A stretch of DNA of 30,739 nucleotides from Deltaproteobacteria bacterium TL4. Its GTDB lineage: Bacteria > SAR324 > NAC60-12. How positions within the stretch are numbered: position 1 is the first letter of the stretch; each line of letters starts with the position of its first letter. The notes under the pieces are model-generated. The model did no database searches. It saw only the letters and a list, made by a program, of their open reading frames with translations, and was not told the origin of the DNA. The position numbers and the translations under genes are program-made. Location: the NCBI GenBank assembly GCA_051382335.1, contig JBBCAX010000333.1, forward strand, positions 1-30,739, written 5' to 3'. Shown here piece by piece: positions 634 to 27,854 of the stretch.

Positions 634-1068
634 ATGCCTTTACCGAGACAGCCCATGCAACACGAAACCGAATCCCTTTCCCCCAAGCCAGTCAATCCCT
701 CAACCACAACAAGGACTCTCATGGCTCAGCAGCCCGCATCGACGAATCCCGTCGCGAAAGTCGCAACAAAAAAACGAGTGGAAGTCTCAAGCCTGGGACT
801 TAAACTGGGTTCTACGGAAAACGCGCTGGCCAAGATCAAAGAAACGACCTCTGAGCCGCTCCAGGAAATGATTAACGCCATTAATGATTTTGTGAGCTGG
901 CTTTTTGACGCTGGCCGTGCCTTGACAGGCACGAGAGTTCCCCGAAAAACTCCGAAGCAGGGCGCAGAGACTCAGACCTCCAATGATCTTAAAGCGTTCG
1001 GACGTATGTTTTTGTTTACATCCCATGAAGTCGTTAAAAAACGAAAAAATGGTGATAAAAAATCTTAA
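634..1068 (+). CDS. Hypothetical protein upstream of the mamK paralog, carrying the shared C-terminal motif LFTSHEVVKKRK
   Basis: 144-aa ORF with GGAGG at 616-620; C-terminal motif matches the ends of ORFs 2715-4718 and 19186-20454. Start is uncertain. Confidence 0.65.
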   Translation: MPLPRQPMQHETESLSPKPVNPSTTTRTLMAQQPASTNPVAKVATKKRVEVSSLGLKLGSTENALAKIKETTSEPLQEMINAINDFVSWLFDAGRALTGTRVPRKTPKQGAETQTSNDLKAFGRMFLFTSHEVVKKRKNGDKKS

Positions 1069-1095: not shown

Positions 1096-2568
1096 ATGAG
1101 TACCAGAACATCAAAAACCCCTAAAAACAGAACCAACTCGTTCCCCCAAAACAAAAAAGAGACGAGAGGAAATTCCAATTCTGTGCGAACAACTTCCGGT
1201 CCTGGTCAAAGGATGGCCGCAAGATCCGCGGAGGGGCATGCCGGCAATACCAAACCAGGTCCCGAGGAGATCCAAAGGAAAGTCGGCCCTACCAAAAAGA
1301 ATCTCGGCGGTGTCAAGAGTCAGGTCAGCACTCCCGCGACCAGTTCGAGCAACTCCAAGCCCGGTACCATTAAAACAGCAAGTGAGGCGATTAAAACAAC
1401 GCGAGAGGCGGTCCGGAATGTCCCCAACGCCATAAAAGCGGCAACAGAAGCGCTGATGTCCGAACGGGAATCGCAAGAAGCGGCACAGGAACAAGAAAAA
1501 TCTACTTCTGCCGCTGCACCTTTTCCTGAAAAACGAGCCGGTGGTCCTAAACTGCTCAGAATAGGCATTGATTTGGGAACCGCGAAAACGGCGTTAATTT
1601 CTGAGAGGGGAATCCGAACACTCATGCCTTCGGTAGTTGGCTATCCCAGAGATATCATCAGTACAAAACTATTAAACGCGAATAAAGCGATTGGTGAGGA
1701 GGCTTTAAAGAATCAATCGCATCTCAACCTTTACTACCCCATCGAACACGGTGTGATCACAGAAAACAGTGAAATTGACATTGAAGCAGCAAAAGATCTG
1801 CTCCAGCATGTCTTGAATCTGGCCCAGCCTGAACCAGGAGATAAATTAGCGGTAGTCATTGGAACACCTTCCGCCGCTTCTTTTTCCGGCAGGGAGGCAC
1901 TCTTGAAGCTGGCAAAAGAAATGACGGATGTAACGCTGGTCGCGTCTCAGCCCTTTTTGGTTGCCTATGGGATGGATCGTTTGAGTCAGACGATTGTGAT
2001 TGATATCGGAGCCGGCACAACGAACATCTGTGCCTTGACAGGTTCCATTCCTCTCCCGGAAGATCAAGTGACCCTCACCAAAGCGGGAGATTCCGTGGAC
2101 ATGGTCTTGAGAACACTGATTTCAGAACACCATTTTGGCATACAGATAACCCAGCAATTTTCAAAAAAAATCAAGGAAAAATTCGGATTTGTCGGTGAAA
2201 CTGAAGAGCCGGCGCTCGTTCCTTTCCGAGAAAATGGAAGGCCAAGAATGATTGATGTCACCAAGGAAGTTAAAGCAGCCTGTGAGACACTGATCACTCC
2301 CATTGTGGAAAATATCCAGGATTTGCTGTTGAGATTTGACCCTGAAGACCAGGGAACAGCACTTCAGAACATCTTCCTCGCAGGCAACAGTGCCAAAATC
2401 AAAGGCTTGGATCAAGCCCTTGCAGAGGCACTTGCGGAATACGGTGAGATTCATATTCGAAGAGTTGAAGATCTGGATTACGCAGGATGCAACGGCGCTT
2501 TGAAAATCGCGACGGAGTTCCCTATTGAGCATTGGAATCAAATTGGTGATGTCATTGGATCCTTGTGA
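1096..2568 (+). CDS. mamK: MamK-like actin homolog with about 150-aa low-complexity N-terminal extension
   Basis: Actin phosphate motifs IGIDLGTAKT and IDIGAGTT, plus SVVGYPRDII; colinear with 20480-21511 through to HWNQIGDVIG. ATG 1096 follows GAGG (ORF track starts at TTG 1084). Confidence 0.9.
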   Translation: MSTRTSKTPKNRTNSFPQNKKETRGNSNSVRTTSGPGQRMAARSAEGHAGNTKPGPEEIQRKVGPTKKNLGGVKSQVSTPATSSSNSKPGTIKTASEAIKTTREAVRNVPNAIKAATEALMSERESQEAAQEQEKSTSAAAPFPEKRAGGPKLLRIGIDLGTAKTALISERGIRTLMPSVVGYPRDIISTKLLNANKAIGEEALKNQSHLNLYYPIEHGVITENSEIDIEAAKDLLQHVLNLAQPEPGDKLAVVIGTPSAASFSGREALLKLAKEMTDVTLVASQPFLVAYGMDRLSQTIVIDIGAGTTNICALTGSIPLPEDQVTLTKAGDSVDMVLRTLISEHHFGIQITQQFSKKIKEKFGFVGETEEPALVPFRENGRPRMIDVTKEVKAACETLITPIVENIQDLLLRFDPEDQGTALQNIFLAGNSAKIKGLDQALAEALAEYGEIHIRRVEDLDYAGCNGALKIATEFPIEHWNQIGDVIGSL

Positions 2569-2714: not shown

Positions 2715-4718
2715 ATGGATAATGAACTTCAACCTGAATCAGGTACGACTTTAGAAGAACTACAGGCAATGCTCCAACAATTACAGCTCACCTTTAATAG
2801 TGAAAAAGAAAATTTGGAGGACATCCAGAAAAAATACCAGGAGGCTCAGTTGGAGCTTCAATACATGCAACAGGAACGGGATCAACTTAAAGCCGAAATC
2901 GCCCCGGAAGCCTCTTGGGAGGGACCTGAGGCGTTGATAAACAACGCTGAGGCCACCGCAGCAGATACAACCGAAGAAAATCAAGAGCTTTCAGTTCAAG
3001 CGGAAGCAACTGTGGCAGAGGCGGAAGAACCCACACCAGAAAACCAACCTGAAGCCGTGCCTGCTCCTGAAGCCGAAGAGCCAGAGCCTGCCGGAGAAGC
3101 GTCTCAAACTGAAAACGCTTTAAATGGCATCATAGCCCGGATCGAAAATCTGGAAACCTTGGATGAAACTGAAAAAAATAAAACAGAAGCCCTGCGGCAA
3201 AAACTGGATCATGCGCCACCTCAGCCTGTTCAGCAGTTGAAAGAGGAACTTGAGGCTGAAAAAAAGAAAGTCGTAACGATTCAGCACAAACTGGACAGCG
3301 TGCAGAGCCAACTCCTTGCCCTTCATTCCTTGAAGGAGGAATTTACCGCTAAACAGCGAATCCTTGAAGACTTCCTTCAAAAAAATGAAAACACCGCCAG
3401 TCAACTCCTTGCCCTTCAGCATCTCAAAGAGGAGTTTTTAATGGAAAGAAAAGAGATAGTGGCACTGCAACAAAAGTTTGAAAACATGGACACACAACTC
3501 CTGGCGCTTCAGTACTTGAAAGAGGAATTCTCCGCTGAAACTAAAAAAATGGTCGCCCTTCAACAAAAGTTTAAAAATCTGGAGACTCAGCTCCTGGCGC
3601 TTCAGTACCTGAAAAATGAATTTACCTCCGAAACTCAAAAAATGGTGCTGCTCCAGCAAAAACAGGACAGCATTGACCCGATGATTTTGGAAATCAAACA
3701 CCTTAAAGAGTTAATAATTTCTGATAAAAAAAAAGTGGAGGTGCTTTATGAAAAAAACGAGGATCACTCCGCTGAAATGTTGGCACTGCAACAGAAATAT
3801 AGCCGATTGATGGCCGGACTCCTGGAACTGAAGCAGGAAAGTGACAAAGCTGAGGAAAGAAGAAGTCAACAGGCAGAAACTCGGTCTATCATTACCACTC
3901 AAGCGATAGAAGAGAACGAGCCTCAAAGAACAGCAGCCCCCCGCCCTCATGAAAAAGAGGAACCAAAAACGGGGGGACTCCCGTTTACGGCCCTTAAGGA
4001 AGAACACTTAACCCCTGAGCAGGAAAATAAACTCAAAAGAGCCGCTTCTATCTCCCTTGGAAATATCATAGGCAGTCTTTCTGCGACCAGACATCGCAAG
4101 GAGGACGATGATAACGATAACAACGATACCGAGGATCATGACGGTGATAACCATGTATTCGGTGGTTTTTTTAAAAAACGAAAAGGACATGAATCCCTTT
4201 TAGAAATCCTGGAGGCAGAATTTTCCCCATCCGAACCCCTGCATGGCCATCCGAAAGCCCCCTCTTTAGTGAAAATTCAAACGGCAATCCCGGACTCCGT
4301 CTCGCAGAACAACACGCTGGAAATTCAACCGGTCGCCCCAGATTCCGTCCAGGATAATGACGCAAATCCCGATGTTTCCCCGGAACAGAACACGGAATTA
4401 CCAGTCGCGGACAATCTCCTGGAGACACAAGGAAAAGAGCTTCCACAAAAAGAAGAAACGAACAACCCCCAGGTGAAAGAACCGACTCCTGTTTCTGACC
4501 TCAATCCCTCCGTGGAAATTCAAAAGTCGGAGGAGTGGCTCAAATCAGAAAAAACTGAACCGAACGTGAGTGAGACTTCTGAACCCCGGAAAGCAACCCC
4601 TTCCATTCCCAAAGAATGGTCTGACTCCATGAGTGCCAAAGCGTCAGAGGTTCGGAACTATACCTCAAAACTTTTTACGTCCTACGAGGTCAGAAAAAAG
4701 CCGAAGCGCTCCAAATGA
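2715..4718 (+). CDS. Coiled-coil, acidic repeat protein; partial paralog of 19186-20454 and candidate MamK-associated scaffold
   Basis: 667 aa with AGGA SD; E/Q/K/L-rich coils, 31-aa repeats, acidic Pro-rich linkers, C-terminus LFTSYEVRKKPKRSK. Confidence 0.85.
   Translation: MDNELQPESGTTLEELQAMLQQLQLTFNSEKENLEDIQKKYQEAQLELQYMQQERDQLKAEIAPEASWEGPEALINNAEATAADTTEENQELSVQAEATVAEAEEPTPENQPEAVPAPEAEEPEPAGEASQTENALNGIIARIENLETLDETEKNKTEALRQKLDHAPPQPVQQLKEELEAEKKKVVTIQHKLDSVQSQLLALHSLKEEFTAKQRILEDFLQKNENTASQLLALQHLKEEFLMERKEIVALQQKFENMDTQLLALQYLKEEFSAETKKMVALQQKFKNLETQLLALQYLKNEFTSETQKMVLLQQKQDSIDPMILEIKHLKELIISDKKKVEVLYEKNEDHSAEMLALQQKYSRLMAGLLELKQESDKAEERRSQQAETRSIITTQAIEENEPQRTAAPRPHEKEEPKTGGLPFTALKEEHLTPEQENKLKRAASISLGNIIGSLSATRHRKEDDDNDNNDTEDHDGDNHVFGGFFKKRKGHESLLEILEAEFSPSEPLHGHPKAPSLVKIQTAIPDSVSQNNTLEIQPVAPDSVQDNDANPDVSPEQNTELPVADNLLETQGKELPQKEETNNPQVKEPTPVSDLNPSVEIQKSEEWLKSEKTEPNVSETSEPRKATPSIPKEWSDSMSAKASEVRNYTSKLFTSYEVRKKPKRSK
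3234..3795 (+). repeat. Intragenic 93-nt (31-aa) tandem repeat, about 6 degenerate units
   Basis: QLLAL..LK[EN]EF units start at 3309, 3402, 3495 and 3588, an exact 93-nt period. Confidence 0.85.
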
Positions 4719-10691: not shown

Positions 10692-10826
10692 AACTTTAAC
10701 CACTCAAAAAACTTTCATAAGTTCAGAATCCCATTGAAACTCTCTTGGAATGGGTGTAGCTTGCGTGCATTTGTCAAAACAGGCACAATGTCTTTTCCTC
10801 CCTTCATCTTAAAACAAGTAAAGAAC

Positions 10827-11051
10827 ATGAAATTAGAGATTTTTAAAACCAAGGTAACTCACGCCAGTTTTATTTTTGGCATTGTGATTCTGGTCATTGG
10901 ACTGTGGCGTTTATCTGTCTGGCGATGGTCTGTGGCTGAGTTTTTGCGCGGAACTGTTCCTATTGTGTTGATTCTATTTGGTTTAACAGCAATCGGTGCT
11001 GGACTTTCAGAATTGAAAAAAGTTAAAAACATAACGGAAAATGAAGATTAA
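10827..11051 (+). CDS. mamI: MamI paralog (copy A)
   Basis: WRWSVAEFLRGTVPIVLILFGLTAIGAG matches WWWSVVELLRGFAPVALVLFGIIAVGAG of copy B; two TM helices; upstream of mamE'. Start uncertain (track gives TTG 10734). Confidence 0.8.
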   Translation: MKLEIFKTKVTHASFIFGIVILVIGLWRLSVWRWSVAEFLRGTVPIVLILFGLTAIGAGLSELKKVKNITENED

Positions 11052-11059
11052 GGAGCGTT

Positions 11060-12538
11060 ATGAACGTGAATGATGAAGAGTGCGCTCAAAAAGAAACATG
11101 CCACGAAGGTGATGCCTGCCACCAGGAGGAATGCTGCCCTTTGAAGGACTCTCGGACCCAAAAATTACGAGGGTACATGCTCCTAGTTGGCGTTTTTGCT
11201 GTCGTCTTGGTGGCCGCAGCTTGGTACAAAGGAAAAGTCACGGTTCCATCCAGCACCACACCCCAACCCCTACTCAAGGTCAATAATCTGCTCCCGCAAT
11301 CCCAAAATTATGCGGCAAACATCCCGTACATGGGACAGAACGTCATGGCGCTGCCTGTCGCGAGGAACACCTTTACCGATGTCGTTGAGCTAGCCGAGCC
11401 ATTCGTTGTCAATATCAGTGCCATACGTTTGACGACCATGGAAAAAGACCAGCCTCTACAAAATGTTTTTAAGTTTGTTTTTCCTTTCAGTGGCGTTGGT
11501 TTTGAAAGCTTGGGTTCCGGAGTGGTCATCACTCAAGATGGATATATTTTGACTAATTATCATGCGATTGAAGGTGCCGATATTATTTATGTCAGTGTTG
11601 TTACAGGAAAAGAAACCACCCTGCATCAGGCGGAAGTCATTCAACTCGCTGAGAGGCTGGACCTCGCCTTAATTAAAATCGAGCCGCCGGTACCCTTGAG
11701 ACCCGCAATTTTAAGCAAGGAAAGACAACTCTGGATTGGCCAGGATGTGATGGCCTTCGGGCGTCCCATGAGTCTTGAAGCCACAGTCAGCAAAGGCATT
11801 GTGTCAGGGTTGGACAAGTCCATCACCATCGATAACATCACTCACCGAAAACTGATTCAAACTGACGCATCCGTCAATCTGGAGAACTCCGGGGGTCCCT
11901 TGGTTGACATGAGGGGTTATGTCGTGGGCATCAACACCGCAATTCAGGCTCCGAATGGAGAATTTGACGGTGCGGGATTTGCTGTCCCATCAAAGCATGC
12001 TGTTGAGTTTGTCGAAGCGTTTGTCGCTTTACCTGACCGCGTGCCTAACTTGAACCAACACGTCCAAGCGGTAACTGTCGCTGCAGTCAATGCGATGCCG
12101 ATTGTTGAAGGAACGGCGAATACTCATGATGACCGAGGCCCTTGTTTTCAGTGTCATCAGATCCTCCCACAAAATGCGGCGTTCAATCAATTTTCAGCGC
12201 CTCAGCCTCAGCCTGCACCAAATGGAACCAATGTTGCTTTCACTTCGCCTCAGCCCAGCACGCTTTGGTTGGGAACGGAGCTCACACCTGTGTCTCAAGC
12301 GTTGAAGGATGGCAACGCAGGGGTTTCCGGGGGTGTTTTCCTGAGCAGTGTTGCGGCGGGTTCCAACTTGGACAATGCGGGATTACGCGCAGGTGATATT
12401 ATTTTTAGAGTCGATGGCAAAACCATGGACTCCCCCAATGACCTCTACGATTTTACCCGGAACAAACAAGGCACAGCGAGAGTCTCAGTGATCCGAGAGG
12501 GTACTAGGCGAAATGTCTATGTTGAACTCACCCCATAA
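11060..12538 (+). CDS. mamE: MamE paralog: TM, trypsin-like domain, one magnetochrome, one PDZ
   Basis: LTNYH, DLALIKI and NSGGPL; HDDRGPCFQCH; LRAGDIIFRVDG PDZ motif; AGGAG SD. Confidence 0.88.
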   Translation: MNVNDEECAQKETCHEGDACHQEECCPLKDSRTQKLRGYMLLVGVFAVVLVAAAWYKGKVTVPSSTTPQPLLKVNNLLPQSQNYAANIPYMGQNVMALPVARNTFTDVVELAEPFVVNISAIRLTTMEKDQPLQNVFKFVFPFSGVGFESLGSGVVITQDGYILTNYHAIEGADIIYVSVVTGKETTLHQAEVIQLAERLDLALIKIEPPVPLRPAILSKERQLWIGQDVMAFGRPMSLEATVSKGIVSGLDKSITIDNITHRKLIQTDASVNLENSGGPLVDMRGYVVGINTAIQAPNGEFDGAGFAVPSKHAVEFVEAFVALPDRVPNLNQHVQAVTVAAVNAMPIVEGTANTHDDRGPCFQCHQILPQNAAFNQFSAPQPQPAPNGTNVAFTSPQPSTLWLGTELTPVSQALKDGNAGVSGGVFLSSVAAGSNLDNAGLRAGDIIFRVDGKTMDSPNDLYDFTRNKQGTARVSVIREGTRRNVYVELTP

Positions 12539-12549
12539 CACGATGCATT

Positions 12550-13296
12550 ATGAATAATACAGGAGCCTTTGTTGTCTCATTGGGATTTGTCGCATTTGCG
12601 GCCCTTCTGCTATACATTCTCTTTGATTCTCCGGGTTACGAAGAGGTCACGGATACCGTGAATAGCCAGGTCACAACCCTCAATGATGCGTTTGGAGTGC
12701 CTGCTGCGCTGGTTACCGAAACAGCTCCCTCTACCGCTCAACCGCCAGTCCTTCCTCCTTACGTTTCTCCAACAATTGCCCTTTCAGAAGGGCACTGGCA
12801 GGGGATGGAAGTGATTGTGCTGACAACGGAACTTAGAACAAAATTAAAAATCCCCATGAACATTGAAGGCGTCTTGATTGATGAAGCCACACTAAACGTG
12901 TTGGAGTCCGGAGTCATGGCAGGAGACATTCTGGTAGCGATTGATCAAAAGAGGGTGAAAACCATCGAAGATGTCGTAAAATTCTCAAAAAGTGTCAGGG
13001 ATCGAACCAGTGTGTCGCTGTCGATTCTTAGAAATTTTAAACCAAGGGTTTTTACGCTGAAAAGCAAGGATTTCCTGGGATTCGCGCAAGCGGAAACAGC
13101 ACCGATGATTCTTCCCAGTGATATTGTTCCTCACCCCTACCGGGGCAAATGCACCCTCTGTCACGCCATCGGAGGAACAGGCGACATGAAACCGGACCCT
13201 GATTTGATTCCCTTGCCTGTGCCGACTATCCTCAAAAACGCACAGAATACTCACAGAGATCGCGGCCCCTGCACCGCATGTCACGTTGTTTTGTAA
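12550..13296 (+). CDS. mamP: MamP: TM, PDZ and two magnetochrome domains
   Basis: EGHWQGME, LGFAQAETAPMI, PHPYRGKCTLCH and HRDRGPCTACH. Confidence 0.92.
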   Translation: MNNTGAFVVSLGFVAFAALLLYILFDSPGYEEVTDTVNSQVTTLNDAFGVPAALVTETAPSTAQPPVLPPYVSPTIALSEGHWQGMEVIVLTTELRTKLKIPMNIEGVLIDEATLNVLESGVMAGDILVAIDQKRVKTIEDVVKFSKSVRDRTSVSLSILRNFKPRVFTLKSKDFLGFAQAETAPMILPSDIVPHPYRGKCTLCHAIGGTGDMKPDPDLIPLPVPTILKNAQNTHRDRGPCTACHVVL

Positions 13297-13323
13297 AAAT
13301 GATCACTAACGCATAGGTTTGAT

Positions 13324-14115
13324 ATGGTGGAGAAGTTCTCTCCTGAAGAAGACAGAAAAGAACGTGCACGCCGGATGAAAGAAATGGCGGAAAGTTTGTT
13401 TCATGACGAAATCAAACCGCCCCCTATATTACATCAAATCCGACGCAGAGGAGCCGTTGTCCTGATGTCTGTCTTTTCTGTCATTATTTTTCTATTCACG
13501 CTATTGTATCTGATCAATCAGTTTATTGTAGAGGAAGAGAGTGTTTTCGCAGCAAAGTCTCATGTTGCCGTCTCACTCAGAAGACGGGACAGTTTATTCA
13601 GAAATATTGTGAATGCCACCCTCAATCAAGCGGCCTTGGAATATGAGTTGGTCCGGTATGTTGCTGATTCACGTTCGGAGAAGCCTAACCCGGATTTGGA
13701 AAAAGAGACAGGACTGAACCTTGAGGCGTTAAAAGGCTTGAAATCCGCGATGGCATCCCCATTCTCCCTGTCCAAGTTGAATGCTTTGGTGGAACAGTAT
13801 CCTCAAATCCAGTTCTCCGCTGTTTACTCCCAGCTGATCAATAACCTGGTAAATATTGAAAATACCATTACTCAAAAACGAGATGCGGAGAATGAAGCCA
13901 TACGCAAATACAATACCACGATTGCCCAGTATCCCTGGGTTTTCCTGTCCAAAATAACAGGCTTTGATCCTTATCCTTACTACAAAGGCACTCTTGGCAT
14001 TCAAAAGGCCCCGGGTTTAAAACCCCAGTTGTTTGACCGACTCCTGCAACCTGAAACGGTGATAAACGCAAAGGAAACTGAAACGCTGAACAGCAACCCA
14101 ACACCTCCTGAGTAA
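13324..14115 (+). CDS. mamQ: MamQ paralog (LemA family), copy A
   Basis: TM, RRRDSLFRNIVNA, ALVEQYPQI, and YN...YPW LemA motifs; paralog of 25618-26370. Confidence 0.88.
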   Translation: MVEKFSPEEDRKERARRMKEMAESLFHDEIKPPPILHQIRRRGAVVLMSVFSVIIFLFTLLYLINQFIVEEESVFAAKSHVAVSLRRRDSLFRNIVNATLNQAALEYELVRYVADSRSEKPNPDLEKETGLNLEALKGLKSAMASPFSLSKLNALVEQYPQIQFSAVYSQLINNLVNIENTITQKRDAENEAIRKYNTTIAQYPWVFLSKITGFDPYPYYKGTLGIQKAPGLKPQLFDRLLQPETVINAKETETLNSNPTPPE

Positions 14116-14117
14116 AA

Positions 14118-14570
14118 ATGTCGATCAGAAGTAAACAAAGAATTCGCATGGTTTATGTCACCATCATCTTGATCAGCCTGGTTTTTGCGCTAACAGCAGG
14201 TTTAATTGTCAAGCATGACTTGGACGTTAAAGAGCTAGGCATCATTTGGGGAAGAATGCCCAGGCCCACGGAACCTCGTTTAGTGGGCTCAATCCTGGAA
14301 CGTTTTACCCCCAAAGAGCAGAAAACAGTGATTCGACGCATTCCCCGGATTAGCGCCAATATGCGGATGCCTCATCCTTACTGGGGACAATGCGACCGAT
14401 GCCATTTGTTTAAGGACAAAACCGTCATCCACAGCATGACCCCCGTTGGCAAAGCCTTGGGAGCGTTTTCTGAAACCTACAAAAAAGTAGGCCCCCCCAT
14501 TTTGCCGGATTCCTCTATGCCCCACCCTGCTGCAGGACGCTGCATCAAATGCCACGATATCGTGATTTAA
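14118..14570 (+). CDS. mamT: MamT magnetochrome cytochrome
   Basis: N-terminal TM; MPHPYWGQCDRCH and PHPAAGRCIKCHDIV. Confidence 0.92.
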   Translation: MSIRSKQRIRMVYVTIILISLVFALTAGLIVKHDLDVKELGIIWGRMPRPTEPRLVGSILERFTPKEQKTVIRRIPRISANMRMPHPYWGQCDRCHLFKDKTVIHSMTPVGKALGAFSETYKKVGPPILPDSSMPHPAAGRCIKCHDIVI

Positions 14571-14709
14571 GAAACGGTACTACTGGTATGAGAATCGAGG
14601 GGAAACGACTCACATGAATATAAAAACTGAAACATCGAGTATTAACTTCCTTGATAATGATACCAAGTATTGATATCATCCATTTTAGAAGTTGGACTTA
14701 ATTTTGTAC

Positions 14710-14813
14710 TATAGATGTTCAGAAAATTAACGACACCGTAGAAGAGGCGTCTCGCCTCTTTCAAGGAGCGGGACGCTCCTTCTACTGTGAATTTATTTAA
14801 ATGAACATCTATA
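14710..14813. mobile_element. Second MITE-like element of the tatagaYgttca family, enclosing a GTAG-type REP hairpin
   Basis: Right end 14788-14813 matches the reverse complement of 10418-10443 at 25 of 26 nt; left end tatagatgttca; internal gtagaagaggcgtctcgc...gcgggacgctccttctac (14738-14785). Confidence 0.72.
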
Positions 14814-14821
14814 CGAAGAAA

Positions 14822-15082
14822 ATGCAACTGAATAAAAAACATGGGAAGGTCCTTGAAACGATATTTAAGGATCCAACTCAGTCAGATATTTTATGGAGTG
14901 ATATTGAAAAACTCATGTATGCCTTAGGTGCAGAGATTAGTGAAGGAAGTGGATCCAGAGTAAGAGTCGCTTTAAATGGGGTACGGATGGTCTTTCACCG
15001 TCCTCATCCTAAGAAAGAAACAGATAAAGGTGCGGTCAAATCGGTTCGTAGATTTTTCCAAACAGCGGGAGTTAGGCCATGA
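14822..15082 (+). CDS. hicA: HicA family toxin (type II TA)
   Basis: WSDIEKL..ALGAEISEGSGSRVRVALNG...FHRPHP...DKGAVKSVR; the upstream ATG 14801 lies within a MITE TIR. Confidence 0.92.
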   Translation: MQLNKKHGKVLETIFKDPTQSDILWSDIEKLMYALGAEISEGSGSRVRVALNGVRMVFHRPHPKKETDKGAVKSVRRFFQTAGVRP

Positions 15083-15408
15083 TGGAATATAAGGGGTATA
15101 TTGGATATGTTGTTTTCGATGACGAGGCAGAGATTTTTCATGGTGAAGTCATCAATACCAGAGATGTTATTACCTTTCAGGGACAAAGTGTCTCAGAAAT
15201 TAAAAAAGCATTTATAGACTCTGTTGAGGATTACTTAGAATTCTGCGAACTACGTGGAGAAAATCCAGAAAAACCATTCTCCGGTAAATTATCATTAAGG
15301 TTAGATCCTGAAATGCATCGTAAAATCTATGTCCAGGCCAGAGGTCAAGATAAGAGTTTAAATTCTTGGATAATGGAAACATTACAACACGCAATAGAAA
15401 TATCTTAA
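15079..15408 (+). CDS. hicB: HicB family antitoxin
   Basis: MEYKGY...FHGEV...DVITFQG...SVEDYL.FC...PEKPFSGK, C-terminal RHH (SLNSWI); ATGA overlap with hicA. Confidence 0.93.
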   Translation: MMEYKGYIGYVVFDDEAEIFHGEVINTRDVITFQGQSVSEIKKAFIDSVEDYLEFCELRGENPEKPFSGKLSLRLDPEMHRKIYVQARGQDKSLNSWIMETLQHAIEIS

Positions 15409-15587
15409 TATCCCGATACCTCTCAAAAACCGGAGAAAGAGTCCAAAAGGGTTACCATCAATGGAAGATTTTCTTTCCAAACACTTTGTTCACCCCCTCC
15501 CCCTTAGAGCCTCTTATCTACATGAAATCATTGCGTTTTTTTTCAAAAAAAAAAAAATAGATTTGTAATAAAAAACTTATAAAAAGC

Positions 15588-15616
15588 TTGTATTTGTAGA
15601 TTATTTTGTTGATATT
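15588..15616 (+). promoter_or_regulatory. Possible sigma70-type promoter for block B
   Basis: TTGTAT-17nt-GATATT in an AT-rich region, downstream of A/T tracts; weak match. Confidence 0.25.
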
Positions 15617-15731
15617 ACGGTTCGAGTTTTGTTACAAGTAAAACGAGTGATGAAGATCAATGTAACAGGGGCAGGAACTTTATCGCGTCCGGCGTTTAAA
15701 ATTCAGCTCAAAACACAAATAAGGAGGATGT

Positions 15732-16007
15732 ATGATTGATGATATTGTTGAAGCAGGAAAAGAGGGCTTGGAGTATTTAGGCATTGTTGATTTTTCCGAT
15801 TGTGGCGTTACAGCGTGTGCTGGCGAAGGTATTTTTGCGGGACACGGCTTTTCCGGTTTTTCAGCGCTTAAAGGCGCAGGGATTTTCGGCATCGGAGGAA
15901 TAGGGTTTAGCGCTTTAGGGCCTATCATCCTGTTGATAGTCGCTCTTGGCGCTATTATGTGGTATTTGAATGCCAGAGAAACCGAAGAAGAAGCCTCGAC
16001 GGATTAG
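15732..16007 (+). CDS. mms6: Mms6-like small Gly-rich magnetosome membrane protein, copy B
   Basis: AAGGAGG SD; KGAGIFGIGGIGFSALGPIIL TM; acidic tail ETEEEASTD. Confidence 0.62.
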   Translation: MIDDIVEAGKEGLEYLGIVDFSDCGVTACAGEGIFAGHGFSGFSALKGAGIFGIGGIGFSALGPIILLIVALGAIMWYLNARETEEEASTD

Positions 16008-16079
16008 GCTCCATTCGGAAAGAGTAAGGTGAATAGTAGTAATTTAAATAATTGAATGAGTAAATTTGGAAGGAGTATT

Positions 16080-16406
16080 ATGGATGCAAAAAAGGTTCTG
16101 GAAAGTGAGTTTTCAATGAAATCTTATTTTTTGGCAATGTGCAGTTATCTCGGCATTTTATGTCTGGTCCCGGTTGTTCTTAACAAGAATGACGAGTATG
16201 TTTATTTTCACTCACGTCAAGGATTGGTTTTATGGATTTGGAGCGTTCTTTCCATTTTCGCTTTGTATATTCCAGTCATCGGACGTCTTTTCTTTGGATT
16301 TTCCGCATTTTTAATTTTGATTTACTCCTTCGTCGGCATGATTTCTGTCATCTTTACCAAAGCGTGGAAACTTCCGTTTGTTGGTGATTTGGCCGACGGT
16401 TTTTAG
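16080..16406 (+). CDS. mmsF: MmsF/MamF-family protein, copy B
   Basis: SYLGILCLVP, DEYVYFHSRQGLVLWIW and AWKLP; ATG 16080 follows AGGAG and aligns with the copy A start. Confidence 0.87.
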   Translation: MDAKKVLESEFSMKSYFLAMCSYLGILCLVPVVLNKNDEYVYFHSRQGLVLWIWSVLSIFALYIPVIGRLFFGFSAFLILIYSFVGMISVIFTKAWKLPFVGDLADGF

Positions 16407-16829
16407 TAAGCTGAGATTTCCTGCTTATGAAAATATTCTGCGAAGTTTTTGCCTGAGCCCTACCCCGGTCGAGGTGAAATTCTGGTAGAATTTTAATTGC
16501 GATTGAGGTTTGTGGAGATGAAGATCGCGTCGTAAACGGACTCTGCTTTCTGACGCCTGTCTGCTCGGGAATGGTGAGAGAGACTTGGTTTTCGTACCGG
16601 ATCAAATCTGATTCGCAGTGTTGTGGCTCTAATATCCTTTGTCAAAGTAGACCCAAAGTTGAGGGACTCCCGCTGGTGCTAAGCTTCTTTGTTAATTTCC
16701 CGCTTTTCAAACTTGATATTCCTACCAATCTTTATTAAGGTCTGTGTGAATTGTGGATTTTTGTATCGATTAAACGTTAAGTACTTCAAGGATACTAACA
16801 CCTGAATAATGAAAGAAGGAGTCAAGGAG

Positions 16830-17027
16830 ATGACAAATGTAATTGTTGGCGTAGTCGCCTGTGCGCTGGGATTTTGGGGGTTATACACGTGGTGGTGGTC
16901 TGTTGTGGAACTTCTGCGTGGTTTTGCGCCTGTAGCTTTAGTTTTATTTGGAATTATTGCCGTTGGAGCCGGTATTACCGCAAAGCGAACCAGTATCAGT
17001 GATGACTCAACCGAAGAAGAGGGATAA
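16830..17027 (+). CDS. mamI: MamI
   Basis: Two TM helices with GLYTWWWSVVELLRG; directly upstream of mamE; alternative start 16809. Confidence 0.9.
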   Translation: MTNVIVGVVACALGFWGLYTWWWSVVELLRGFAPVALVLFGIIAVGAGITAKRTSISDDSTEEEG

Positions 17028-17036
17028 GGAGCGGTT

Positions 17037-19052
17037 ATGGCCTTGAAAAAAGGATCTGCCAACAATGGGCCTTGTGCCAAAAGGTACCGAAAGTTTTTTT
17101 TCATCATTGCTGGGATCGCTTTGCTGTTTATGGCCGGAGAGCGCTATTGGTATCAGCCTAATTTTGGGGACAACCAGGTAAATCAACCTACGTTCATGCA
17201 GCAATTCAATAACCGTAATGCGGTTGCGCCAGCCCAGTCACCTTACGTACAAAATGCCAATGCCGGAACACAGCTCAATTATGGCCCAGGTATCCGTGCG
17301 GAACAGGGCCCCCCCGCTTACAGACAAAATGCTGCTTCTGGAACACAGCCCTATTATGGCCCGGGTGCCCGTGCGACAACAGTGGCGATGCAGCAGAATG
17401 TAATGACTACTCCGGTGCCGGGCCTGCCGAGAAACGACGGCAATAACGCACCCCTTCCAGGGAACGTAAACCAGCAGGATTCAAGTGCCCCAACCCCGGC
17501 AACCATGGTGGCAGAATTTGCCAAACAAACAGTAGTGAATATCAGCGCGGTGCAGTTAATCACTCCTCTCACAGCAAATCAACCCGCTCAAACAGGTGTT
17601 AAATTCGCATCTCCATTTAGTGGTAAATCCATTGAAAGCATAGGTTCAGGAATCATACTGACGCCAGATGGTTACATCCTCACCAATTATCATGTCGTCG
17701 AAAAAGCAACCGAGATTTACGTGAGTGTCTTTGTCCCAAATGGGGTGACCCGTCATCATGCGGAAGTGATTCAACTTGCGGAAAGATTGGATCTGGCTTT
17801 AATCAAAATTGAGCCCAACGCCCTTTTGATTCCTGCGGCTTTAAGTACTGAAAACCGCATTATCCGGGTGGGCGAAGAAGTATTGGCGATTGGAAGCCCT
17901 TTTGGACTGGAGCAAAGTGTCAGTAAAGGCATCATCTCCGGTTTGGACAAATCAATCACCATTGATGGCATCACCCACAAAAGACTGATTCAAACCGATG
18001 CGGCCATCAACCGGGGAAACTCTGGAGGCCCCTTGGTTGACATGATGGGATATGTGGTTGGCATCAACACGGCGATTTATACCCCCACGGCCGCTTTTTC
18101 GGGAGTTGGGTTTGCGGTTCCCTCAACTCAGGCGCTTGAGTTTGTCGGTGATGTTATCCCTTTGCCTAATGTACAACCGAATTTGAACGCGCATGTACGA
18201 GCGTTTGGTATTGCTGCCCTTAATGCACCGCCTATTGTTTCAGGTGCTGTCAGGATACATGAAGACCGAGGGCCTTGTGAAACGTGTCACCAGATCATGC
18301 CTTTCACTGCGGCGCCGCCCGCTGGTGGGCAAAAGGCCGCATTTATAGTGCCCAAAACTCCAACGAATGCCCCTCAGTTTGCGATGTCCCCTTACTTCCA
18401 GGCTCAAGGAGCTCCAATCGCTTTCAACCCTCCAGGCTCAAGTCTCGATTGGATCGGCGCGGAACTTCAAAACATGACCGAAGTGCTCAGCAAGGCGTTT
18501 AACTCCGATATTACCGGTGGAATATTTTTAAGCAATGTCCGGCCCGATTCTATCGCGGACCAAGGGGGTCTGCAAGCAGGTGATATTGTTTTTCGTGTTG
18601 AGGGAAAAAAATTAAGCACCACGGAAGATCTCCTCAATTTCACTCAAGGCATGGAAGGCACCGCAAGAGTTTCCGTGATCAGGGATGGAGTGAAGCAGGA
18701 TGTTTACGTAGAACTTGACAACACTAATCCCCCTGGAGTAGTAAAAGTCGCAGGAACCGTCGCAACACCCGCGGCACCAACCCCGGTAACCGTTGTTCCA
18801 ACCCTGACTGAGCTTGAGATCTTGGGCATGGAGATGTCTCCTAACACGAATGGAGGCGCCTTGATAGGTGAAATCAGCCTGAATTCCGTAGCCTACGCCG
18901 CAGGACTTCGGATGAATGATGTGATTGTGTCTGTCGATAAAAAACCCATCGACACGCTGGATACGATGAACAAAAGCCTTGATGTGGCCAATTTAAACAA
19001 TTTGATTGAAGTGAAGCGCAATGGACGGAGTATATTCTTCACGCTTAAGTAG
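17037..19052 (+). CDS. mamE: MamE HtrA-like protease: TM, trypsin domain, magnetochrome, two PDZ
   Basis: LTNYHVV, DLALIKI and DAAINRGNSGGPL; HEDRGPCETCH; two PDZ-like repeats. Confidence 0.95.
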   Translation: MALKKGSANNGPCAKRYRKFFFIIAGIALLFMAGERYWYQPNFGDNQVNQPTFMQQFNNRNAVAPAQSPYVQNANAGTQLNYGPGIRAEQGPPAYRQNAASGTQPYYGPGARATTVAMQQNVMTTPVPGLPRNDGNNAPLPGNVNQQDSSAPTPATMVAEFAKQTVVNISAVQLITPLTANQPAQTGVKFASPFSGKSIESIGSGIILTPDGYILTNYHVVEKATEIYVSVFVPNGVTRHHAEVIQLAERLDLALIKIEPNALLIPAALSTENRIIRVGEEVLAIGSPFGLEQSVSKGIISGLDKSITIDGITHKRLIQTDAAINRGNSGGPLVDMMGYVVGINTAIYTPTAAFSGVGFAVPSTQALEFVGDVIPLPNVQPNLNAHVRAFGIAALNAPPIVSGAVRIHEDRGPCETCHQIMPFTAAPPAGGQKAAFIVPKTPTNAPQFAMSPYFQAQGAPIAFNPPGSSLDWIGAELQNMTEVLSKAFNSDITGGIFLSNVRPDSIADQGGLQAGDIVFRVEGKKLSTTEDLLNFTQGMEGTARVSVIRDGVKQDVYVELDNTNPPGVVKVAGTVATPAAPTPVTVVPTLTELEILGMEMSPNTNGGALIGEISLNSVAYAAGLRMNDVIVSVDKKPIDTLDTMNKSLDVANLNNLIEVKRNGRSIFFTLK

Positions 19053-19185
19053 TGCTATTTTAAGTGTTTGTCAGGTATTAGGGGCTGGTACTGGCAGCAA
19101 TTCGTGAGTAATCAACATCGCCTGAAAACCCGCACGAAAGTGCTCTGTTTGAATAACCTGTAAAAGGGGAGTGTGAATAGGAGAT

Positions 19186-20454
19186 ATGAGTTTGATTCAG
19201 AGAAAACTATCAACTAAAACTAAAAATCCTGAGAGTTTTGGTAGCAACACCAATGTCAGGATTTCCGGTACTGAAAATCCATGGAAAGCCGAACGGCAGG
19301 TAGTGAGACCTGCGATTCAGGTAAAAATAACGCCGAGGACCAAAAACCTGGATGACTTTATGCCCCGTAAAAACGTGGTGGCCTCTGGTGTTGACAACCC
19401 ATGGGTCGATACCCCTGCCGTAACAACAGCATCTATTCAAAGAAAGACGGCGTCCAGAATTCCAGAAAATCCCTGGAATTTCGAAAAACCCAAATCCCCT
19501 GCAACGGTTGAAGTCAAATCCATATCCTTCGGACGCACGATGCCTCAGACAAACGTACAGAGCGTGTCTTTTGAAGAAAATCCCGCGTTGAAGGAAATGC
19601 AGACAACCCTGCTGCAATTGCAAAACGCGTTTGAAAACGAAAAAAAGAAGATCTCCGATCTTCATCAAAGCCATGACAGTACTTTAAAAGCACTGGAAAA
19701 CGCCAAAAAAGAACGAGATCAACTCCAAGCTCAAAGATCTCAAAAAGAGATTGAGGAACAGCGACGAGCGGAAGAACAGAGAAGGACGGAAGAGCAAAGA
19801 AAAGCGGAAGAGCAAAGAAAAGCGGAAGAACAAAGAAAAGCGGAAGCCGCGTTGCGTGAAGAGCAAAGGATGCAGAGAGAAGCGGAAGCCGCATTGAATG
19901 AAATGAAAGCAAACATCCAAAAGCTCCAGGAGGCTTACCGACAGGAACAAGAAAAAATGGCGGAATTGGAGCGAGTGCAGACCCAAACACGCAATGAGCT
20001 GCGAACAGTTCAAAAAGAGCAGGCTCCGTCAACAGTTAGAAGCCCTCAGAAAACACCTGTTGAAACTAAAGTTGAAAGTCCTCAGAAGATCATCCTTGAG
20101 GCCCGACCGGCACCGGCCCGAGAGCAGCAAAACACGGATACCCCAGTCGCTTCAAATCAGACTGCGGCGCTTGCGCCAAGAAAGAAGAAAAGAACGGTTG
20201 CCGTTTCAGTGGTGAGAGGTCCGTCCAGGATGGTCTTAGACTCTATCCCACAGGCAAAGGAAAAAGTCACAACGTTCATAAAAAAGAAATCGCAACCTGC
20301 TGAACCAAAAGCAGAAATTCAAGTGGTTAAAAAAACAACGGAGGATTCTAAGTTGGGATTCGGAGCATTTAAGGGATTCGGCTTTGCAAGTCAGAATTCG
20401 GGTAAAAAATTGGTTGAATCTTATGAAATCGTAAGAAAGCCTAAACGTCATTAA
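19186..20454 (+). CDS. Coiled-coil protein in the mamJ position (between mamE and mamK), candidate MamK adaptor
   Basis: 422 aa with AGGAG SD; three NPW motifs, EEQRKA repeats, C-terminus LVESYEIVRKPKRH. Confidence 0.85.
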   Translation: MSLIQRKLSTKTKNPESFGSNTNVRISGTENPWKAERQVVRPAIQVKITPRTKNLDDFMPRKNVVASGVDNPWVDTPAVTTASIQRKTASRIPENPWNFEKPKSPATVEVKSISFGRTMPQTNVQSVSFEENPALKEMQTTLLQLQNAFENEKKKISDLHQSHDSTLKALENAKKERDQLQAQRSQKEIEEQRRAEEQRRTEEQRKAEEQRKAEEQRKAEAALREEQRMQREAEAALNEMKANIQKLQEAYRQEQEKMAELERVQTQTRNELRTVQKEQAPSTVRSPQKTPVETKVESPQKIILEARPAPAREQQNTDTPVASNQTAALAPRKKKRTVAVSVVRGPSRMVLDSIPQAKEKVTTFIKKKSQPAEPKAEIQVVKKTTEDSKLGFGAFKGFGFASQNSGKKLVESYEIVRKPKRH

Positions 20455-20479
20455 TAATTTAAATGGAAGGAGAGATGAA

Positions 20480-21511
20480 ATGGCAGACGGTAAAAAGCAG
20501 TTCCGAATCGGTATTGATCTTGGAACTTCAAGAACAGCTATAATGACAGAAAGAGGGACTAGAGCGGATTTTATGTCGGTGGTTGGATATCCCAGAGATA
20601 TCATTGGGACCAAGTTGCTGAATGGGACCAAGGCCATTGGGGATGAAGTCATGGAAAAGCGATCATTTCTCGATGTTTACTTTCCACTGGAGAATGGGGT
20701 TATCAAGGAAACCAGTGAAATTGATATGGAAGCTGCCAGAGATTTGTTAAAGCATGCGTTGCTCCTCGCCAAACCCGAGCCTGGTGAGGAAGTCTGCGTA
20801 GTGATTGGTGTTCCTGCCAGAGCCTCTTTTTCAAACAGGGAATCGCTTTTAAAATTGGCGCATGAATTGACCGATGTGACCTTGGTTGTTTCTGAACCGT
20901 TTTTGGTGGCCTATGGCATGAACGAATTAACCAAGTCGATCGTCGTTGATATCGGCGCGGGGACAACGGATATTTGCGCGTTAAAAGGAACGGTTCCTAA
21001 TGCCGAAGATCAAGCGACCATTTCCAAAGGTGGAAACTACGTGGATAAAGTTTTGAGGGCTTTGCTTTTAGAGCGCTATCCCGATATTCAGGTTTCCAAG
21101 CATATGGTCCAAAAGATCAAAGAACAAAACTCCTTCGTCGGTGAAATCAAGGAACCCATCATGATTGAGTTCAGAGCCAACGGAAAACCAAAGCAGTATG
21201 ATGTGTCCAAAGAGATCAAGGACGCCTGTGAAACACTAGTCCTGCCGATTATAGAGCAGATTGAATATCTACTCATGAGATTTGATCCGGATGATCAAGC
21301 AGAAGCACTTCGACATATCTACCTGGCCGGCAACGGTTCGAGGATTCGAGGCATGGACGCGGCCATCGTGGAAGCGCTACAAGAGTATGGTGAGATTAAT
21401 GTAATGTGTGTGGATGACCCTGATTATGCTTGTTGCAAAGGGGCTTTAGGCATTGCGATGGATCTTCCTGTGGCTCATTGGAATCAGATCGGGGATGTCA
21501 TTGGAACATAG
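20480..21511 (+). CDS. mamK: MamK actin-like protein
   Basis: IGIDLGTSRT, SVVGYPRDIIG, VVSEPF and VDIGAGTTDIC; 343 aa; precedes mamL. Confidence 0.96.
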   Translation: MADGKKQFRIGIDLGTSRTAIMTERGTRADFMSVVGYPRDIIGTKLLNGTKAIGDEVMEKRSFLDVYFPLENGVIKETSEIDMEAARDLLKHALLLAKPEPGEEVCVVIGVPARASFSNRESLLKLAHELTDVTLVVSEPFLVAYGMNELTKSIVVDIGAGTTDICALKGTVPNAEDQATISKGGNYVDKVLRALLLERYPDIQVSKHMVQKIKEQNSFVGEIKEPIMIEFRANGKPKQYDVSKEIKDACETLVLPIIEQIEYLLMRFDPDDQAEALRHIYLAGNGSRIRGMDAAIVEALQEYGEINVMCVDDPDYACCKGALGIAMDLPVAHWNQIGDVIGT

Positions 21512-21514
21512 ACC

Positions 21515-21736
21515 ATGTTTAAGCGTATAGCGACATTTATTATAATACTGCTGCTATTGATCTTTGCCTTGCAGAATTTCGACATTGTGCAAGTGCGATT
21601 CATTGTAGGCCCCGTGATGAGAATACCCTTATCCTTTGTGATGGCAGCGGGGTTCATACTCGGGTATCTCTTGTGTTATTTCGGTAACATCTTTAAAAGT
21701 TTAAAGAACAGGAAAAAAGAGCAAATTGAAGAATGA
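21515..21736 (+). CDS. mamL: MamL
   Basis: 73 aa, two TM helices (IFALQN...GFILG) and a basic tail; located between mamK and mamM. Confidence 0.82.
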   Translation: MFKRIATFIIILLLLIFALQNFDIVQVRFIVGPVMRIPLSFVMAAGFILGYLLCYFGNIFKSLKNRKKEQIEE

Positions 21737-22102
21737 TGAAGGTGCCTCTCCCAAAAAAAGAGGCTTCACTGCTGTTAACATGCCTGTCTTTGTAGGTGAG
21801 GTTAAGCAAGTTTGACTTCGGGCAGTTTTTTAAGAAACGAGGACGGACTTTCAACTCCACATACGAGCTACTTGCGGTTTGAGGCTCCAGTTCTCATTTA
21901 TTGAAGAGCGCCCTCTGGCCTGTTCGGAGGAAACCTACCCCGCCGTAAATGAGCCTCGCCTGTCATGACCTTACACCTTTAATTTGAGAGTTATCAGTTT
22001 TCAGTGTTTGTGAATGATTGTCTTTAGTTTTGCTCCAACGGAACAAAAGTCACTTTGGATGGGGAACCCCATCAATGAGCCAACAAAAGGATAAAACCCA
22101 AG

Positions 22103-23014
22103 ATGCAAATTGCTAATTGTACCGTCTGCTATAGATTTGTCGGCTGGATTGGGTTAGGAAGCAATCTGTTTATGTCGCTGCTAAAGCTGTTTGTCGGTAT
22201 TGTCTCCGGTTCTCAGGCCTTGATTGCGGACGCGATGTATTCGGCCAAGGATTTGGTGACCTCGATATTGATCATCGTAGGGCTGAAGATTTCCGTTAAG
22301 CCTGTGGATAAAGAACACATGTATGGACATGGCAAAGTGGAATTCCTCCTTGCCTTGGTGGTCAGTATCGTCTTTATCATTGTGACCGGAATGATTTTAT
22401 TCTTTACCGCGGATCATTTCATTCAAGGAAAGCACAAAGTTCCTAATTTGATTGCCCTTTTTACTGCCCTGTTTTCGATTGTAACTAATTTATTTCTCTA
22501 TAAATACACTCGATGCGTAACCCGGCAGATCAATAGTCCGATGGTAAAGACCTTGTCCAAACATCATTGGGCGGACATGCTCTCATCCCTTGCGGTAGCT
22601 GGGGGTATTATTGGGGCACACTATTTGGGGCTGACTTGGCTGGACTCTCTGATTGCGATTTTTGAGACCTTACATCTTTTATACCTGGGCGTTGAAGTCT
22701 TGTGGGAAGCGGTTCAAGGACTGATGGATTACTCCGCACCTGAAGAGATGCTGGATGAAATCAAAAAGAACGCCTTGGAAGTGGACAAGGTCAGAAGTTT
22801 AGTGAGTTTGAAGACAAGACGTATTGGTCAGGGATTATGGATTGATATTGTGATTGGTGTGGACCCGGATATGAATGTTGGTGACGCACATAAAGTGATG
22901 AAATCCGTTGAGCTGAATATTTTCAACTCCCTGGATCATATCACCAACATCAATGTACGTTTTGAGTCAGTTGAGGGATTACCCCAAATGGACTTATTAC
23001 CTGTAGGAGAATAA
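22103..23014 (+). CDS. mamM: MamM CDF transporter
   Basis: N-terminal CTVC..VGWIGL, GSQALIADAMYSAKD, YGHGKVEF and HHWAD. Confidence 0.94.
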   Translation: MQIANCTVCYRFVGWIGLGSNLFMSLLKLFVGIVSGSQALIADAMYSAKDLVTSILIIVGLKISVKPVDKEHMYGHGKVEFLLALVVSIVFIIVTGMILFFTADHFIQGKHKVPNLIALFTALFSIVTNLFLYKYTRCVTRQINSPMVKTLSKHHWADMLSSLAVAGGIIGAHYLGLTWLDSLIAIFETLHLLYLGVEVLWEAVQGLMDYSAPEEMLDEIKKNALEVDKVRSLVSLKTRRIGQGLWIDIVIGVDPDMNVGDAHKVMKSVELNIFNSLDHITNINVRFESVEGLPQMDLLPVGE

Positions 23015-23019
23015 GGGCG

Positions 23020-24840: not shown

Positions 24841-24949
24841 AAGGTGAGCCTTCTGCTCCAACGGAGCCTTTTATCAAAGGAAATCCTAGCTTCCAAGCCA
24901 GGTCATTATTCACAGTGTGATACGTAGTATTAAGAACCAACGGAGAAAA

Positions 24950-25612
24950 ATGAGTAACAAAAAGAAAACACCTGTCAAAGATGTTGACATCATGGATAGT
25001 GTAGGTTTTTACCTGCACTCCAGTCTCATAGTGATGAAAAAAATCGCGGATTCTTCTATTGAATTGTACAAAGGCCTTTTTAATGTGGACAGTGAAGATC
25101 AGGTCACTTATTATCGAACCAAAGGGATTGATCACGCAAAGAAAGCAAAGTATCAGAAAGCCCTTCCACTGTTGAATATCGCCAGGCAGGAAAACCCCGA
25201 GGATGAAACGGTTTTATATTACCTTGGGCTGTCCTTGATCAAAACAGGAGATCATAAGCAAGGGATTGAGGTTCTTGAAGAGGGAGCCAAACTTGACAAT
25301 AAAAATATCAAATTATTTACTTTGCTAGGGACCTCCTACAGTAAATTGGAGGAGTACAACAAAGCGATCCAGGTTTTTGAACAAGCCCTTGCTTTTGAAA
25401 AAACGGTCAACCTGTATTATCGACTGGGTTTTGCCTATGATAATGAAAAAAATCATGATAAAGCCATAGCGTGTTTCAAAGAAGCGATGCTCCTCGAACC
25501 TGACAATGTTAAAGTCTGTCACGCTATCGGTTTGGCTTATGAGTCCAAGGGGAATCGTGACGAAGCGGTAAAATTTTTTAAGAAGGCCTTGGAACTCGAA
25601 GAGGATGTGTAA
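24950..25612 (+). CDS. mamA: MamA TPR protein
   Basis: YYRTKGI followed by about five TPR motifs ending A..FFKKALELEE; position between mamO and mamQ; GGAG SD before ATG 24950. Confidence 0.9.
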   Translation: MSNKKKTPVKDVDIMDSVGFYLHSSLIVMKKIADSSIELYKGLFNVDSEDQVTYYRTKGIDHAKKAKYQKALPLLNIARQENPEDETVLYYLGLSLIKTGDHKQGIEVLEEGAKLDNKNIKLFTLLGTSYSKLEEYNKAIQVFEQALAFEKTVNLYYRLGFAYDNEKNHDKAIACFKEAMLLEPDNVKVCHAIGLAYESKGNRDEAVKFFKKALELEEDV

Positions 25613-25617
25613 TTTTT

Positions 25618-26370: not shown

Positions 26371-26433
26371 GTTTCTGAATTATATCCGCGCTGATCAGCG
26401 GCTGAGCCCTAACCATACAAAAAAGATACTCCC

Positions 26434-27297: not shown

Positions 27298-27298
27298 A

Positions 27299-27850: not shown

Positions 27851-27854
27851 AAAA

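Follow-up and report, generated by a model that had tools for sequence, protein, structure and literature searches.

The window, that is, the whole 30,739-nucleotide stretch of DNA analysed here (contig JBBCAX010000333.1 of Deltaproteobacteria bacterium TL4, phylum SAR324), encodes a canonical MamK, K1, and a second MamK, K2, in which both acids of the MreB hydrolysis motif 'E…T-x-[D/E]' are turned to amides, as read from the alignment. In the reading that we prefer, to which we give a probability of roughly 50%, K2 is a polymerising, hydrolysis-slowed accessory MamK that damps the dynamic K1. For K2 itself, retained ATP binding and polymerisation combined with slow hydrolysis is likely. The genome contains two MamK and two MreB, and no more. 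The relevant features are listed in Table 1.

Table 1. Positions of the two mamK genes, the diagnostic codons of K2 and the neighbouring genes in the window
Feature	Position	Strand	Description	Basis
ORF directly upstream of K2	634..1068	+	144 aa; C-terminal LFTS[YH]EVxKK-type motif	
Second mamK (K2)	1096..2568	+	490 aa: N-terminal extension and MamK domain (residues 153-489)	NF040964, phmmer, model
K2 N-terminal extension	1096..1545	+	150 aa; basic Ser/Thr-rich coil (1-91), then predicted amphipathic helix (92-137)	
K2 phosphate-1 motif	1570..1590	+	DLGTAKT; Asp kept, Ala at position 21	
K2 Glu143-position codon	1948..1950	+	CAG = Gln285, connect-1	Alignment to 5jyg_A
K2 phosphate-2 Asp	2002..2004	+	GAT = Asp303 = Asp161, kept	
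K2 Asp168-position codon	2023..2025	+	AAC = Asn310; T-x-D/E (MreB Glu169, actin His161)	Actin equivalence from PMC9597168
K2 Gly290 site, adenosine motif	2389..2391	+	AGT = Ser432 (AGNSA)	
ORF directly downstream of K2	2715..4718	+	667 aa, acidic, coiled-coil-like; same C-terminal motif; candidate MamJ-like adaptor	
Rest of magnetosome cluster	10734..28784	+	mamI, E2, P, Q2, T, mms6-like, F-like, E1, K1, M, O, A, Q1, B, S, V/B-like	
ORF between mamE and K1 (MamJ position)	19186..20454	+	422 aa; same C-terminal motif	
Canonical mamK (K1)	20480..21511	+	343 aa; four catalytic acids all kept; Glu codon GAA at 20894-20896	NF040964, 468 bits

The original prediction had drawn attention to VASQPF in K2 in place of VVSEPF in K1, and both codons (CAG for Gln, GAA for Glu) were borne out. 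Gln285 aligned with Glu143 of MamK, as had been supposed, in a phmmer alignment to the solved chain 5jyg_A that was ungapped over residues 153-489; this equivalence rests on sequence alignment because the fold search yields no residue pairs. Among 125 aligned relatives, position 143 was Glu in 121 and Gln in 4. The replacement of AGNGS by AGNSA in the adenosine GG motif was also described correctly. As K1 itself carries the Asn, only the Ser is particular to K2, and this Gly-to-Ser change was seen in 1 of the 125 relatives. A further substitution, D168N (reading TTN), had been missed; it occurred in 1 of 172 MamK-clade sequences, and Asn310 of K2 aligned with the T-T-E of the MreBs of the same genome. 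K2 differed at five of 61 columns (L74I, A117S, E143Q, D168N and G290S), these being the columns whose conservation across 107 Glu-type MamK reaches 95% or more, so that E143 counts by construction; the Glu-type MamK themselves showed a median of 0 and a maximum of 4 differences at the same columns. Judged against the 125 aligned relatives, E143Q of K2 lies beyond ordinary variation. The Ala at position 21 (S21A) was dropped as a sign of lost catalysis because 28 intact MamK copies and one of the genome's own MreBs also have it.

The MamK domains of K1 and K2 shared 60% identity over 342 residues with no gaps. K2 scored 426 bits against NF040964 (curated cut-off 400), and its model, built from a 98-sequence alignment, had a pLDDT of 95.3 and matched best the MamK filament chain 5ljv_A (TM 0.94, rmsd 1.1). 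In the tree, K2 nested in the SAR324 MamK clade with support of 100/100. Its phosphate-1 DLGTAKT and phosphate-2 DIGAG fit the DxG and DxGxG motifs; the GYPRD, R-x-x-G-x-P and P-E-D-Q segments are retained; and K2 has Gly at the Ala278 site, at which an Asp mutant does not polymerise. The connect-1 motif, given as xEPx with Glu143 in PMC10653835, reads SQPF in K2, and the T-x-D/E segment that holds the Asp168 acid reads TTN. Because the connect-1 SQPF lacks Glu143, K2 was classed as a MamK-derived paralog, not as a canonical MamK. Compared with the Magnetospirillum MamK (5ljv, 5jyg; NF040964), K2 is alike in the fold (TM 0.94), in sequence (47% identity), in its magnetosome-cluster setting and in D17 and D161, and differs by E143Q, D168N, G290S, the 150-aa extension and its status as a second copy. 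Two other identities were rejected. Mad28 is described as carrying Ser at the phosphate-2 Asp and as sharing 15-17% identity with MamK (PMC10653835), whereas K2 keeps this Asp and is 47% identical to MamK; for BeeR, K2 scored 203 bits with NF053558 against a cut-off of 530.

Within the phylum (SAR324), mamK was found in 4 of 88 genomes, each with two copies. In the other three, neither Glu143 nor Asp168 of the second copy is altered, and the change in K2 is therefore not conserved in its relatives; the K2 protein is a singleton in the database. In G009, the second copy has Glu in place of Asp17, and its adenosine loop reads GRCS. A topology in which the second copies of the four SAR324 genomes form a single clade was rejected (p 0.013).

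Altered catalytic acids were then counted across genomes. The census input comprised 170 matches in 113 genomes, one group being sampled (401 out of a larger set) and Nitrospirota and Desulfobacterota not being included; it was analysed outside the order of G088 (four genomes set aside), that is, for 165 copies in 109 genomes, 43 of which hold two or three mamK copies. D17, E143, D161 or D168 was altered in 9 of the 99 copies of multi-copy genomes and in none of the 66 single copies, a contrast with a Fisher p of 0.009, which is overstated given the kinship among the genomes; copies may also go unseen in incomplete genomes. The altered copies span seven lineages, always with an intact copy in the same genome, and carry Gln (G000, G680), Ala (G544; G657, G659, G660), D161N (G625), D17N with D168N (G676) or D17E (G009). 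Ala143 is common to a clade of three genomes, and in three altered copies the catalytic acid is the sole invariant column changed. The catalytic columns had 2.25 events per column against 0.89 for the other 35 invariant columns (p 0.050; p 0.092 without K2). These counts suggest a targeted loss of catalytic acids in spare mamK, although the enrichment is borderline. Altered extra copies can be found at loci L264, L265 and L268 (G660, G657 and G659, respectively), L269 (G625), L274 (G676) and L151 (G544).

The codons of K1 and K2 differed at 30% of first, 18% of second and 58% of third positions and at 55 of 90 fourfold sites, and the two proteins were identical at 49 of 57 family-conserved columns and 40 of 105 variable columns. 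K2 is under long-term purifying selection and not a pseudogene; it is an intact, selectively kept second MamK descended from SAR324 MamK. It is improbable that K2 is instead a relaxed duplicate drifting to loss, with the amides as tolerated damage that has no selected role. The branch of K2 is long (0.53 against 0.23 for K1), and together with the extra invariant-site changes L74I, A117S and G290S it fits general relaxation; the amide changes, moreover, occur in no relative, and the borderline catalytic enrichment points the same way. Drift is nevertheless opposed by the 490-codon frame, which is intact with no indel in the domain, by silent sites that are near-saturated while second positions are conserved, by the keeping of two copies in all four SAR324 genomes with mamK, and by the isosteric nature of both amide changes. 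Errors of sequencing or assembly are a very improbable source of the amide codons. K2 is known from one contig and one database member, and a single base change separates each amide codon from an acid codon, but two separate errors would be needed, both on catalytic acids in an unbroken frame, and the same Glu-to-Gln change was seen in other lineages.

The acids of the MreB hydrolysis motif, defined as 'E…T-x-[D/E]', have been equated with actin Q137 and H161 (PMC9597168), and the statement of the original prediction that eukaryotic actin has Gln at the equivalent site agrees with the pairing of actin Q137 with MreB E140 in that paper. That Glu143 is needed for filament dynamics was likewise upheld, since E143A is reported to give static MamK filaments (PMC5059902). 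In Spiroplasma MreB5, a change in the second acid alone slowed the release of Pi by a factor of 5.6 or more, and MreB3, a natural paralog without the motif, polymerises but releases Pi too slowly for measurement (PMC9597168). MreB3 resembles K2 as a natural bacterial-actin paralog without the E…T-x-D/E motif and with active paralogs alongside (PMC9597168). It differs in that it belongs to the MreB family and its Asp/Lys/Ser changes are genus-wide, whereas the amides of K2 are so far a single case. In actin, Q137 positions the water and cannot accept its proton, which D154 or H161 accepts via a bridging water (bioRxiv 2022.03.29.486216). Eukaryotic actin (Q137, D154, H161; about 20% identity) is like K2 in having neutral residues at both sites and a kept phosphate-2 Asp, but His161 can relay a proton, which Asn presumably cannot. 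The likeness between K2 and actin is convergent.

In the preferred reading, Gln285, like actin Q137, would still position the attacking water but be unable to take its proton, and Asn310 would remove the T-x-D proton relay. Asp161 would be the only acceptor remaining, so that hydrolysis or phosphate release should be slow. K2 would co-assemble or bundle with K1 and slow its treadmilling, much as the engineered D161A does in trans; MamK D161A showed roughly tenfold slower FRAP and was trans-dominant in the wild type (PMC5059902). Co-assembly is proposed because of the 60% identity and the conserved surface motifs kept in K2. A K2 of slower turnover, or one that modulates K1, had already been put forward on the strength of the Gln; this is also our best reading, but its ground has shifted, as it now stands mainly on D168N and the cross-genome pattern and not on Gln alone.

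The occurrence of Gln143 elsewhere bears directly on this point. Gln143 was present in 33 of 324 distinct MamK and BeeR-like sequences gathered, a share that is inflated because some searches aimed at Gln types, while distant Gln types may be missed. Of these 33 sequences, 32 keep T-x-D and K2 alone has Asn. On a tree of 54 chosen rows with columns 143 and 168 dropped, five changes were needed, and Gln143 has, by this reconstruction, arisen at least four times: in K2 within SAR324, in the second copy of BW-2 (P0034), in an alphaproteobacterial clade (support 100/99) and in a non-magnetosome group (L104, L106, L108). The alphaproteobacterial clade holds one Glu member, the paralog P0022, which represents a return to Glu. 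A single origin of Gln was rejected by AU tests on 20 rows, with p of 9e-32 for K2 joined to the Azospirillaceae-type clade and 6e-57 for K2 joined to the BW-2 second copy. The latter protein (D5085_13205) resembles K2 in Gln143, in the DLGTAKT phosphate-1 loop and in the Glu copy alongside, and differs in its independent origin, its kept Asp168 and its length of 343 aa. A pattern scan of metagenomes returned 13 stretches, of which nine belonged to the alphaproteobacterial clade, three to the non-magnetosome group and one lay outside any MamK frame; five of the nine lay directly before mamM or mamO. A scan of genome contigs covered 5 of 64 parts. The actins of L104, L106 and L108 are MamK/BeeR-like and stand amid housekeeping genes with none of the window's magnetosome genes nearby.

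The alphaproteobacterial Gln clade comprised 28 sequences (11 distinct at 90%), with the Gln copy often in the main operon, and in the order of G088 mamK was found in 4 of 130 genomes, three with a single Gln copy and one with Gln and Glu copies. Azospirillaceae-type Gln143 in the main or only MamK was seen in P0128, P0018, P0036 and P0241 and at L100, L102, L103, L105, L107, L109-L112 and L120-L122. P0128 (365 aa) is the named MamK of Rhodovastum atsumiense G2-11. The supplements of Dziuba et al. (PMC9938234) give gene coordinates and cloning primers that agree with P0128 in length and at either end, and the paper lists one mamK for this strain; the Gln goes unmentioned in its text and readable supplements. 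Like K2, the MamK of G2-11 and its clade has Gln143; unlike K2, it is of independent origin, is the main or sole copy, keeps Asp168 and has no long extension. G2-11 MamK forms filaments, brought normal chains back in most MSR-1 ΔmamK cells and gave long chains in 35-40% of ΔmamKY cells (PMC9938234). Gln143 alone therefore does not abolish chain-building, and the idea that Gln is confined to spare copies was ruled out by G2-11 and the three single-copy genomes; Gln143 in the latter was counted against our best reading.

These findings are also the main support for an alternative, in our view unlikely, in which K2 hydrolyses ATP at a near-normal rate by an actin-like route, with Gln placing the water and Asp161 taking the proton via a bridging water, and acts as a dynamic MamK or an accelerator of K1. 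Actin itself works with Gln137, its proton acceptor being Asp154 or His161 (bioRxiv 2022.03.29.486216), Asp161 is kept in K2, the Gln-type G2-11 MamK complements (PMC9938234), and the 28-sequence Gln clade is often found in the main operon. All other Gln types, however, keep the T-x-Asp that K2 has lost, chain restoration is no proof of hydrolysis because D161A with MamJ also rebuilt linear chains (PMC5059902), and no dynamics of G2-11 MamK came up in the main-text passages found in PMC9938234.

The MamK-like protein of Magnetospirillum magneticum AMB-1 shares with K2 the status of a divergent second MamK that accompanies a canonical copy, although K2, unlike it, descends from SAR324 MamK. In work attributed to Abreu in 2014, AMB-1 MamK-like is said to have Ala at the Glu143 site and still to hydrolyse ATP. 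Its gene lies in a separate islet (PMC2818848), whereas K2 is on the main-cluster contig, 18 kb from K1. The review PMC13052382 states that MamK-like interacts with MamK and increases its turnover, which favours an accelerating role for K2. Given actin hydrolysis with Gln, the chains of G2-11 and this speed-up by MamK-like, the effect of K2 on K1 could be in either direction, slower or faster.

The N-terminal extension of K2, whose ATG is preceded by a GAGAGG-type ribosome site, was the longest among 145 annotated MamK (median 13 residues). Its predicted helix had a hydrophobic moment of 0.68 in a single-sequence model with a pTM of 0.26. Kinship with the extensions of G009 or G007 was sought and not found (best E 1.1), an ESM Atlas search of the extension and of the 422-aa ORF gave no usable match, and the 667-aa ORF had no match in Pfam or NCBIfam. 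The C-terminal motif shared by the genes flanking the two mamK occurred in 3 of 9145 long frames of this genome, all three at these sites. Similar LF[TV]S[YH][ED]VxKK-like ends were present on mamK-flanking genes in all four SAR324 genomes (also L010:428-2548, L011:7761-9167 and L014:1-420), a motif-bearing gene precedes mamK1 in each of the four, and the motif was not seen before mamK in the loci of other lineages inspected. Their position suggests that these genes encode MamJ-like adaptors, as in MV-1 (PMC10653835).

In the weakest step of the preferred reading, the amphipathic helix of the extension and the motif-bearing coiled-coil neighbours would tether the slower filament to the membrane or magnetosomes. 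We see only a small chance that K2 is slow and yet forms a static scaffold of its own, such as a membrane-anchored rail or a second chain, unmixed with K1. The 40% divergence from K1, the adaptor-like genes flanking K2 and the long extension with its predicted amphipathic helix would suit a separate scaffold; the conserved surface segments are nearly identical in K1 and K2, however, and AMB-1 MamK-like, at 54.5% identity, still interacts with MamK (PMC13052382).

Precedent exists both for a second MamK without this Glu and for low-ATPase bacterial-actin paralogs, and it has already been noted in print that BW-2, among others, carries two divergent copies of mamK. A full-text literature search, which excluded the MamK structure papers, did not turn up any mention of Gln143 or Asn168 as a natural residue of MamK; figure S2 of PMC10653835 or supplement file 9 of PMC9938234 could show the residue. 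The exact K2 variant is known from a single sequence, that of an uncultured genome, and the natural Gln143 MamKs of cultured strains (R. atsumiense G2-11, BW-2) matter at least as much. As one of these has been cloned and complements in MSR-1, the bacterial-actin Glu versus actin Gln is directly testable, and K2, with both catalytic acids neutralised, offers a sharp and cheap test of whether extra mamK copies tune filament dynamics. A wider generalisation, tentative and on balance doubtful, is that spare MamK copies may repeatedly have turned into pseudo-ATPase brakes (in at least seven lineages, K2 being the cleanest double-amide case) while the only MamK of the alphaproteobacterial clade moved independently to actin-style Gln catalysis. 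If true, natural and partly cultured intermediates would be available for the Glu-to-Gln switch separating bacterial actins from eukaryotic actin.

SAR324 magnetosome clusters were already known (PMC7602337), and the nearest named proteins to those of the window come from 'SAR324 cluster bacterium'. Genes of the cluster were named by best family or likeness, several scoring below curated cut-offs. The window includes two mamE (11060-12538 and 17037-19052), two mamQ (13324-14115 and 25618-26370), two mamF-like genes (5162-5485 and 16056-16406) and a further CDF gene in addition to mamB (mamB-like, 26434-27297 and 27855-28784). The mamF-like label is presumptive and draws on the mutual likeness of the two genes. 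The doublings suggest an old partial duplication of the cluster. Right after K1 lies a 73-aa hydrophobic ORF (21515-21736) that is mamL-like by position only. Inside the cluster, 6972-10406 encodes an acidic protein of 1144 aa that has repeats, a single membrane span and probably a signal peptide, and that had no Pfam or NCBIfam match. The cluster is interrupted by a HicA-HicB pair and by a small aspartyl-protease-like gene with a partner ORF (14801-15408, 5599-6257). ORFs adjacent to mamK in G009 (L009:8966-9748) and G003 (L011:9164-9988), of which the window has none beside mamK, have C-termini that we take to be ParA/MinD-like.
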